From: a virus
Taxonomy: Duplodnaviria > Caudoviricetes
DNA: 64,000 nucleotides
Virus record (IMG/VR): IMGVR_UViG_3300034126_000020
Location: 128,001-192,000 of that record
Direction: 5' to 3' (one strand)
Positions 2,311 through 3,234 of the stretch are shown one piece after another. How positions within the stretch are numbered: position 1 is the first letter of the stretch; each line of letters starts with the position of its first letter. The notes below the pieces were generated by a model, which was given only the letters and a program-made list of their open reading frames with translations, was not told the origin of the DNA and ran no database searches. Made by a program: the position numbers and the translations under genes.

Positions 2311-2410
2311 TGGCGTTCACTGCTGGGCTGTACCCAGACCCCCTGAGCGACCTACCCTTGTCCGGTTGACCCGCAGGCGACCGAGGATAAGCTGCCAATG
2401 GGCAGTGAAC
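2311..2410 (-). ncRNA. Putative CCA-ended tRNA-mimic RNA B (100 nt)
   Basis: GTTCACTG/CAGTGAAC 8-bp stem + G + CCA; adjacent 5-bp hairpin CTGGG-TACAG-CCCAG; long irregular inner hairpin. Confidence 0.6.
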
Positions 2411-2419
2411 GGTTTATCA

Positions 2420-2532
2420 ACATCTTCAAGTAGATTTCACCTTGCCTACGCCGGTTGTTACTTTCTACTCGCTGACCCGAAGGTTGACTCCCTGCATCCA
2501 GGCTCACGCTTTAACTGGATACTTGAAGATGT
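2420..2532 (-). ncRNA. Putative structured RNA C (113 nt)
   Basis: 13-bp perfect terminal inverted repeat acatcttcaagta/tacttgaagatgt; inner ATCCAG/CTGGAT stem and ACC-TTCG-GGT tetraloop on the minus strand. Confidence 0.55.
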
Positions 2533-2539
2533 CGACAAC

Positions 2540-2614
2540 TGGAAGAGGTATCTGGGATCGAACCAGAGAATGATGGGATCAAAGCCCATTGCCTTACCGC
2601 TTGGCTATACCTCT
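2540..2614 (-). tRNA. trnQ: tRNA-Gln(UUG)
   Basis: ATGGG-CTTTGAT-CCCAT; cloverleaf with CCA. Confidence 0.95.
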
Positions 2615-2869: not shown

Positions 2870-2957
2870 TGGTGGAGAGAGAAGGATTTGAACCTTCGAA
2901 GTGCGATCGCACGTCAGATTTACAGTCTGATTCCTTTAACCGCTCGGAAACCTCTCC
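2870..2957 (-). tRNA. trnY: tRNA-Tyr(GUA)
   Basis: TCAGA-CTGTAAA-TCTGA; long variable arm; CCA. Confidence 0.97.
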
Positions 2958-2965
2958 GGATAGGG

Positions 2966-3065
2966 TGGAAAGGCCGGCGCCCAAAGCCGCAAGTGGCACG
3001 AATGCCGATCCCTTCGCTGCTCAAAGGCTGCACGGATCACGGCGGCGGAGGCGCCGGCCTTTCCA
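2966..3065 (-). ncRNA. Putative structured RNA D (100 nt)
   Basis: 16-bp perfect closing stem tggaaaggccggcgcc/ggcgccggcctttcca enclosing a branched GC-rich core. Confidence 0.55.
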
Positions 3066-3200
3066 AACGCTCGAAGCCTAGGACGTTTTTCGCCTACAAC
3101 CGTTTTAAGGGGTAAGGGACAAAGGCTCTTCACATAGACTACGTACATCGTGTATTTTTTTACACGATTACAAGGACTTACCGGAGAGACAGGCATAAAC

Positions 3201-3218
3201 GCCGTGCTTTTGCACGGC
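3201..3218. terminator. Hairpin downstream of 3235..4077
   Basis: gccgtgc-tttt-gcacggc flanked by gcata...tatgc. Confidence 0.5.
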
Positions 3219-3234
3219 GCTATGCAGGAGGGTG

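Follow-up and report, generated by a model that had tools for sequence, protein, structure and literature searches.

The 64,000-nucleotide (nt) stretch of viral DNA analysed here, referred to as the window, carries an operon of transfer RNA (tRNA) genes that is preceded by a 100-nt segment closed by a perfect inverted repeat of 16 base pairs (bp), which raises the question of what this segment, termed element D, contributes to the phage. The window comprises bases 128001–192000 of an IMG/VR phage genome that is 276,810 bp long and carries a direct repeat at its termini, and its owner is a giant Pseudomonas-type phage. In an earlier note on this DNA, D was described as a structured RNA at the head of the RNA operon, with a long stem that could be either an RNase III substrate or a stabilising clamp for a discrete RNA. 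The analysis reported below fits the second part of that description and disfavours the first: D is a conserved, single-copy structured element, the probability that it is released as a stable RNA and then binds a protein or serves as a decoy is put at about 0.5, and its excision is probably carried out by RNase P and the tRNA-processing machinery rather than by RNase III.

Fold and conservation of element D

The 16-nt arms of the inverted repeat are 100% complementary and lie 68 nt apart, as had been described, and the window contains no second perfect inverted repeat of 16 bp whose arms are within 250 nt of each other. In 30 approximately dinucleotide-preserving shuffles, repeats of 16 bp did not occur at all, and those of 14 bp occurred at a mean of 0.03 per window. 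The 100-nt stretch folds with an energy of −60.3 kcal/mol on the minus strand (z = −5.1) and −60.4 kcal/mol on the plus strand (z = −5.9), values that none of 200 shuffles reached. The minimum-free-energy fold of the minus strand consists of a closing helix of 16–17 bp (P1), a small internal loop, a second helix (P2) and a three-way junction with two hairpins (P3 and P4), and it contains both of the internal helices that the earlier note had pointed out, i.e., GCCGC/GCGGC and GAUCC/GGAUC. In a 281-nt model precursor, D and the tRNA-Tyr that follows it fold as separate domains, the tRNA into its correct cloverleaf, and D is accordingly modelled as an autonomous domain. Since D stands at the 5′ end of the tRNA array and all tRNAs of the region are encoded on the minus strand, D is presumed to be read on the minus strand as well.

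Relatives of the phage were reached via homologues of the protein encoded upstream of D (P0001) in IMG/VR and the JGI/NCBI metagenomes, and the isolate Pseudomonas phage pPa_SNUABM_DT01 (DT01) via a baseplate-hub-type protein. A covariance model built from the window and one relative, L002 (model R1), was refined on six sequences (model R2), which finds one copy of D per relative with scores of 35–119 bits (L002, L010, L012, L009, L003, L036 and DT01). Together with the window phage, this gives eight distinct copies, from six metagenomic relatives and DT01, a set that leaves out about 12 further relatives, at 51–85% identity, known from protein matches. The conservation on which the earlier note had made its proposal depend is therefore present, in eight phages, and D is single-copy in all four complete genomes searched.

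The position of D is equally constant. Wherever flanking sequence exists, D ends 8–12 nt 5′ of the tRNA that opens the cluster, and the 8-nt gap reported earlier for the window was found unchanged. This first tRNA is tRNA-Tyr in six phages and tRNA-Asn in DT01, and in L010 the DNA ends before an ARAGORN call. DT01 keeps D although its cluster consists of only two tRNAs; its copy lies about 290 nt from the nearest upstream open reading frame (ORF), with another structured RNA in between. Among the non-tRNA modules of the operon, D alone stays constant, and no known relative lacks it.

Outside this group, homologues were sought in several ways. A BLASTN search of 50,697 GenBank phage records, using D plus its leader and the DT01 copy as queries, matched DT01 alone. 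Pattern scans of IMG/VR returned two known relatives and two chance matches that fail the model, and nothing more. When 185,579 genomes of bacteria and archaea were scanned with a pattern that required the conserved loop and a P1 base, 62 matches in unrelated taxa were obtained, which is approximately the number expected by chance; none of them passes R2, the best scoring 25 bits with an expect value (E) of 0.015. Within the reach of a pattern requiring loop and P1 base, this genome scan gives no evidence for a host-encoded homologue of D.

The eight sequences share one architecture, which each of them gives when folded singly. In their alignment (A8), 97.1% of the 277 cells are standard pairs and 22 of the 35 pairs have changed on both sides, which answers the earlier note's call for a covariation analysis. 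None of 500 column shuffles reaches the observed pairing or covariation values, and sliding the partners by 1–3 columns leaves pairing at only 33–44%. Both sides have changed in 13 of the 16 pairs of P1, in three of five in P2 and in four of five at the base of P3. In L002, for example, P1 has U in place of G in its 5′ arm and, correspondingly, A in place of C in its 3′ arm, and P4 changes from GGCA/UGCC to GGCG/CGCC (GGCG-UUAU-CGCC). The alignment thus indicates that the four helices are maintained through sequence change, which argues that D is neither a DNA palindrome nor a coding region. An 86-amino-acid ORF on the minus strand (2936..3196), spanning the promoter, D and part of the tRNA, had been considered and was rejected because the indels among the relatives have lengths not divisible by three; indels of 1, 5, 8 and more nt separate their copies of D.

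A reading of D as a DNA-level palindrome with no RNA function, e.g., a protein-binding repeat, a cruciform or the remnant of a mobile element, could draw on the perfect 16-bp arms and on a folding energy that is the same on both strands. However, three more internal helices are kept by compensatory changes, the loop sequences are asymmetric, D is single-copy per genome and syntenic rather than dispersed, and the transcription unit around it is made up of RNA genes. The probability of this reading is next to negligible.

The invariant hairpin

The most strictly conserved part of D is the distal part of P3 (GC-A-GC / loop / GC-A-GC), in which four G–C pairs and the A·A mismatch flanked by them are identical in all eight members. 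Seven members share the loop CUUUGA, whereas that of DT01 is UUUU, with an extra C–G pair. In L003, L009, L036 and DT01, P4 is replaced by a second A·A-mismatch hairpin (GGC-A-GC, loop, GC-A-GCC). With a mismatch that is strictly kept, doubled in half of the family and displayed by a junction on top of a clamp helix, this part of D has the appearance of a specific binding site. No K-turn, hammerhead or T-loop motif was seen in D by inspection, and no antisense target of its invariant loop was found in the phage genome.

A further reading of D is a self-cleaving ribozyme, or another RNA whose catalysis would separate the tRNA array from its leader. It is suggested by the three-way junction and its invariant core segment, which lie beside a position where the transcript must be cut. 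However, a 211-nt query matches no ribozyme family of Rfam 15 even when E of up to 10 is allowed, neither the length nor the sequence of the junction strands is constant, and the core motifs of the hammerhead are absent by inspection, leaving a catalytic D very improbable.

The stem base and the proposed processing of D

The base of P1 is a G:C pair in all eight members, in each of which P1 comprises 12–17 uninterrupted pairs. The base before P1 is U in six members and C in two, and the tail after it reads A-C-C in six and A-U-C in two. In tRNA, the acceptor end is made up of U-1, G1:C72, A73, C74 and C75, and bacterial RNase P contacts the two C's. D thus displays what a minihelix-type substrate of RNase P displays, i.e., a terminal helix of about 12 bp or longer, an N-C-C tail and G+1:C with U-1. 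Hairpins other than tRNA are also cut by this enzyme: 4.5S RNA, which ends in ...CCCCC-ACCC, is one such substrate and the C4 RNA of phages P1/P7 is another. The maturation of the non-tRNA hairpin 4.5S RNA by RNase P has been described (PMC12016569). Like the 4.5S precursor and the acceptor/T-stem minihelices, D has a long helix that starts from G:C, with U-1 before it and an unpaired A-C-C at its 3′ side; unlike 4.5S RNA, it has no domain IV of the signal recognition particle (SRP) RNA and no Rfam SRP match, and its tail falls short of ACCA.

Similar ends were observed on two other RNAs of the operon. A 123-nt RNA (window 2411–2541, minus strand), whose 19-nt arms are 89% complementary (2414–2432 with 2520–2538), begins 1–2 nt past the CCA of tRNA-Gln and ends with its stem and A-C-C directly before the G that opens the next RNA, and this next RNA ends G-C-C-A before tRNA-Asn. 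Three unrelated RNAs of the operon, D among them, therefore end in N-C-C in the manner of a tRNA, which may be the more general point. Because P1 ends as a tRNA acceptor end does, and the two sibling RNAs likewise, excision of D by RNase P and the tRNA machinery is probable and is favoured over excision by RNase III. If the shared N-C-C ends do direct RNase P, a single host enzyme would dice a whole array of unrelated RNAs, and the N-C-C end rule could be reused for finding such genes elsewhere.

The following scheme is proposed. D would be the first cistron of a tRNA/small-RNA operon and the gene for a discrete structured RNA of about 100–115 nt; a phage-type promoter lying about 75 nt 5′ of it would drive its transcription on the minus strand. 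P1, with U-1, G+1:C and the A-C-C tail, would imitate a tRNA acceptor/T-stem minihelix, as the 4.5S precursor does, and a cut by RNase P at the base of P1 would create the 5′ end of D. A second RNase P cut, 8 nt downstream at tRNA-Tyr, followed by exonucleolytic trimming of the 8-nt trailer to the C-rich tail, would create its 3′ end. In the released RNA, P1 would serve as an exonuclease-proof clamp that presents one or two invariant A·A-mismatch hairpins on a three-way junction, and these hairpins would most likely be the specific binding site of a protein and might act as a decoy that diverts a host factor. The compensatory conservation in eight phages, the predicted autonomous fold and the fixed place of D all agree with the clamp suggested earlier, and the RNA closed by it is taken to be discrete.

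In the alternative raised by the earlier note, host RNase III would cut P1, perhaps stacked on P2, and would either excise D with staggered ends or part the leader from the tRNA array. P1 (16 bp), a 3 × 4 internal loop and P2 (5 bp) amount to about 21 stacked pairs in a layout that resembles the RNase III sites of the T7 type, and the conservation of the helix with covariation would suit any enzyme that reads helices. In phage T4, an 11-bp hairpin stands about 10 nt before the first tRNA and is reportedly an RNase III site (Pragai and Apirion 1981). RNase III stems such as those of the ribosomal RNA operon, of T7 R1.1 and of the hairpin before T4 tRNA-Gln are, like D, strong helices that head a stable-RNA operon near the first mature RNA. 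D differs from them, however, in its perfect, GC-rich P1, which by itself is shorter than two helical turns, in enclosing a conserved, functional-looking domain and in its tRNA-like tail. The uninterrupted P1 of 12–17 bp across the family stays under the approximately two helical turns of canonical RNase III substrates, and the helix of D is very GC-rich, while G–C pairs at certain positions act as RNase III antideterminants. In addition, the conserved A-C-C tail, U-1 and G+1 play no part in RNase III recognition, a mere cleavage site would need no invariant internal hairpin, and the phage genome contains no RNase III gene. Cleavage by RNase III is thus regarded as unlikely.

A second alternative is that D acts in cis as a leader, which would insulate tRNA folding against upstream sequence, guide or speed up the 5′ processing of the first tRNA, protect the precursor or modify the polymerase in the manner of HK022 put, and would then be degraded. 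D always immediately precedes the first tRNA, irrespective of its identity, it is kept in the two-tRNA cluster of DT01, and the leader between promoter and D is conserved too; moreover, put RNA consists of two hairpins just downstream of a promoter, as in D. However, neither insulation nor protection would need an invariant 14-nt tip or its doubling in four members, the DT01 copy is not promoter-proximal, given its distance from the nearest ORF and the structured RNA between, and the tRNA-like tail common to the sibling RNAs suggests a released product. A purely cis-acting role is therefore possible but improbable, on a par with RNase III cleavage.

For D as a released stable RNA, several points weigh on the other side. 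The folding energy is equal on both strands, and the strand of D is assigned from context alone. The tail A can pair with U-1 in six members, so that the helix is also readable as blunt-ended, and the tail is ACC(C/U) rather than ACCA, whereas the operon tRNAs encode their CCA. The fixed place before the first tRNA, even in DT01 with a different tRNA, would suit a role in cis equally well. Finally, the eight sequences come from a single phage clade and are mutually related, A8 was obtained by fitting to the structure model, and some of the apparent covariation of P1 consists of register shifts of similar purine-rich sequence.

Comparison with known RNAs

Searches against Rfam 15 gave no meaningful match, whether over 6 kb (E up to 1) or over D alone and its DT01 copy (E up to 10). 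The best matches over D score 11–15 bits with E of 0.5–8, against gathering thresholds of 40–90 bits (SRP, 6S, ribozymes, CRISPR-DR and Pseudomonas small RNAs). Model R2, run on the whole phiKZ and D6 records and on the T4 tRNA region (with E up to 10 for T4), gave no match either.

The closest known kind are species I and II of T4, small stable RNAs that arise from the phage tRNA precursor (PMC2330249). These RNAs, also called species 1 and 2 and annotated as rnaC and rnaD in NC_000866, are, like D, non-tRNA RNAs of a phage tRNA operon with no known function, and D shares with them that it lies on the tRNA strand within such an operon and contains no ORF. Species 2 ends in ...CACC followed by A, and species 1 has a T-arm-like hairpin, so that tRNA-like ends exist there too. 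In contrast, neither species shows sequence or fold homology to D, the T4 RNAs stand at the tail of their operon while D stands at the head, and D has a much longer closing helix as well as the A·A-mismatch hairpins. By these comparisons, D is classified as a new, undescribed family within this known kind and not as a homologue of the T4 RNAs. Ever since T4, phage tRNA operons have been known to encode small stable RNAs, none of them with a function, and D adds to them a covariation-supported family with a defined anatomy, i.e., a tRNA-like end, a clamp helix and an invariant hairpin resembling a binding site. Because no other non-tRNA module is kept by every known relative, a first functional test of this class would best start with D.

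Two further groups of RNAs were compared. An abundant noncoding RNA of about 100 nt is derived from the 3′ untranslated region of PHIKZ298 in phage phiKZ (Gerovac et al. 2021, PMC8545117). It resembles D in its length and in coming from a tRNA-bearing region of a Pseudomonas jumbo phage, whereas its origin in a 3′ untranslated region with a terminator, its AT-richness and its unrelated sequence and fold set it apart. YrlA is, like D, a modular RNA with its 5′ and 3′ ends in a long helix and is found with tRNA-like sequences; unlike YrlA, D has no T-arm and no match to the Y RNA or YrlA families of Rfam, and a weak YrlA match at 2204–2265 falls on a tRNA outside D. Genes for Ro/TROVE, RtcB, a CCA-adding enzyme and reverse transcriptase are absent from the phage genome, and readings of D as a Y RNA-like or retron-like element were rejected on this ground.

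Resemblance to a CRISPR repeat and the decoy idea

Downstream of D, in the same operon, a stretch of the minus strand (window 2385–2412, GUUCACUGCC-CAUU-GGCAGCUUAUCC) within the 100-nt RNA 2311–2410 is close to a type I-F CRISPR repeat, with the stem CUGCC/GGCAG. RNA anti-CRISPRs (Racrs) have been described (Camara-Wilpert et al. 2023, PMC10651486), and this repeat-like stretch (2412–2385) is a candidate RNA anti-CRISPR inside a tRNA operon. The exact module was not found in any of the relative loci compared.

The hairpin arms of D (CAGC.../...GCAG, and CAGCC/GGCAG in DT01) are one base, a U-to-A change, away from the I-F stem CUGCC/GGCAG. D resembles the Racr situation in that another RNA of its operon copies, at its 5′ end, a type I-F repeat. 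Unlike Racrs, which mimic the whole repeat, D is similar only in a stem of 4–5 pairs with unrelated flanks; it lacks the flanking handles of the repeat, its helix runs on below the would-be Cas6f site, and the U-to-A change creates the strictly conserved mismatch. Because the five-pair stem is short and GC-rich and the repeat flanks are absent, it is a weak lead for mimicry rather than evidence of it.

A guess at function is guided by three observations, namely that D is the most conserved module, that its hairpin is invariant and sometimes doubled, and that a copy of an I-F repeat lies in the operon. In one specific version, D might belong to a new class of phage anti-defence RNA, a decoy made through the tRNA-processing pathway, whose A·A-mismatch hairpin or hairpins trap a host RNA-binding immune protein, e.g., as an uncleavable mimic of the I-F stem that sequesters Cas6f. 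This version is speculative and is considered quite unlikely. If it were true, a Cas6f-trapping D would act alongside the canonical repeat mimic that its operon encodes 550 nt further downstream, and the tRNA operons of jumbo phages could be general launch pads for RNA-based counter-defence.

Operon organisation and phage relatives

The features of the region are collected in Table 1. The placement of D at the head of the RNA operon, as proposed earlier, agrees with the order of the upstream features, since the stop codon of P0001, a terminator-like hairpin and a copy of a promoter motif all lie upstream of it, and the start of the operon is deduced from them.

Table 1. Features of the D region (window coordinates)
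Feature	Position	Strand	Basis or remarks
Upstream gene P0001, 280 amino acids	stop codon 3237–3235	minus	weak Pfam match to crAss001_48
Terminator-like GC hairpin, then UUUAU	3200..3220	minus	15 nt past P0001 stop; sequence inspection
Promoter-like site AATACACGAT-N5-TA	3140..3156	minus	one mismatch from recurrent motif TACAT(T/G)AT-N5-TG
Leader, about 74 nt	3066..3139	minus	sequence conserved; one weak hairpin
Element D, structured RNA	2966..3065	minus	folds; covariance models R1 and R2; covariation counts
P1 5′ arm UGGAAAGGCCGGCGCC	3050..3065	minus	G3064 proposed as +1 and U3065 as −1, the latter able to pair with A2966
P2 5′ strand GCCGC	3042..3046	minus	pairs with 2986–2990
P3 hairpin: GAUCC/GGAUC base, asymmetric internal loop, invariant tip	3007..3038	minus	fold
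P3 tip UGC-A-GC [CUUUGA] GC-A-GCG, A·A mismatch between G–C pairs	3015..3032	minus	alignment A8
P4 hairpin GGCA-UUCG-UGCC	2995..3006	minus	fold
P1 3′ arm, ending ...CCUUUCC-A	2966..2981	minus	followed by CC (2965–2964), making the A-C-C tail
Spacer between D and tRNA-Tyr, 8 nt, CCCUAUCC	2958..2965	minus	CCUA core conserved
tRNA-Tyr (GUA), first tRNA of the operon	2957–2870	minus	ARAGORN; Rfam tRNA 54.5 bits
tRNA-Asp	2696–2620	minus	tRNA scan
tRNA-Gln	2614–2540	minus	tRNA scan
tRNA-Asn	2309–2234	minus	tRNA scan
tRNA-like gene with insertion of about 40 nt	2229–2115	minus	Rfam tRNA
tRNA-His	2038–1966	minus	tRNA scan

The hairpin past the P0001 stop is terminator-like and appears to end the preceding transcription unit; it is kept in L002 and L003 with an altered loop, and a simple terminator scan made no call for it, its T run being short. 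For promoters, k-mers enriched in upstream intergenic DNA were searched and their copies aligned. TACATTA occurs 13 times against 1.0 expected, and the aligned copies yield TACAT(T/G)AT-N5-TG with a T-rich stretch 5′ of the motif. Genome-wide, this motif was observed about 25 times, nearly always on the minus strand 5′ of genes and preceded by an ATTCGAA-like and T-rich sequence (e.g., window 6057 and genome positions 127886, 134057, 152574 and 157531, minus strand), and it probably represents a promoter class of the phage's own. TATGTG was rejected as a promoter motif, as it is not recurrent. The 'ACGATG' of the promoter-like site upstream of D is kept in relatives, and transcription is likely to start at about 3141–3135, as predicted from the position of the site.

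The leader between this site and D, taken alone, folds no better than its shuffles (z = +0.4). Its one hairpin has an outer stem that changes from GAGCCU/AGGCUU to GUGCCC/GGGCAC in relatives, so that three predicted pairs have changed on both sides. An 11-mer of the leader, AGAGCCUUUGU (3119–3129, minus strand), also forms the 3′ arm of the hairpin before tRNA-Gln, the first tRNA of T4 (L101:3040-3055, minus strand). GCCUUUG is found in the invariant loop of D as well, and the related GCCUUUC in the 3′ arm of P1; together with the leader 11-mer, these recurrences may be coincidence.

CCA is encoded by every tRNA of the operon. The tRNA-like gene at 2229–2115 scores 52 bits against the Rfam tRNA model, carries its insertion in the anticodon loop and received no ARAGORN call. 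The spacers between the tRNAs differ among close relatives. The Tyr–Asp gap measures 173 nt in the window phage (2697–2869), 7 nt in L002 (5207–5213) and 65 nt in L003 (5219–5283), and the Asp–Gln gap 5, 234 and 5 nt, respectively. Modules between tRNAs are thus present or absent from one close relative to the next, and the structured spacers act as exchangeable cassettes.

The nearest isolate is DT01, whose 532-amino-acid baseplate-hub-type protein is 72% identical to that of the window phage at the amino-acid level. DT01 was cultured on P. aeruginosa (PMC8541153), and a DT01-like phage from compost, JPTI55, on P. fluorescens SBW25 (bioRxiv 10.1101/2024.08.29.610337). The related contigs RCUN, RCUO and RCUT belong to a single metagenome assembly series, and one RCUT protein is labelled 'compost metagenome'.

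Other long-stem modules

Two further modules of similar appearance were observed in Pseudomonas phages. A module of about 135 nt in phage D6 (OQ363659.1; L100:3148-3283, minus strand), RNA-like but unrelated, lies 8 nt before tRNA-Tyr and is closed by a 13-bp helix (UUUGAAACUAACU / AGUUAGUUUCAAA). Long-stem modules in tRNA arrays may be common among Pseudomonas jumbo phages. In DT01, an unannotated element between ORF PA10_00178 and the D copy (L006:4444-4524; MW735835.1, approximately 170943-171023) is closed by a GC-rich helix of 10–11 bp (GGAGGCUCCC / GGGGAGCCUCC).

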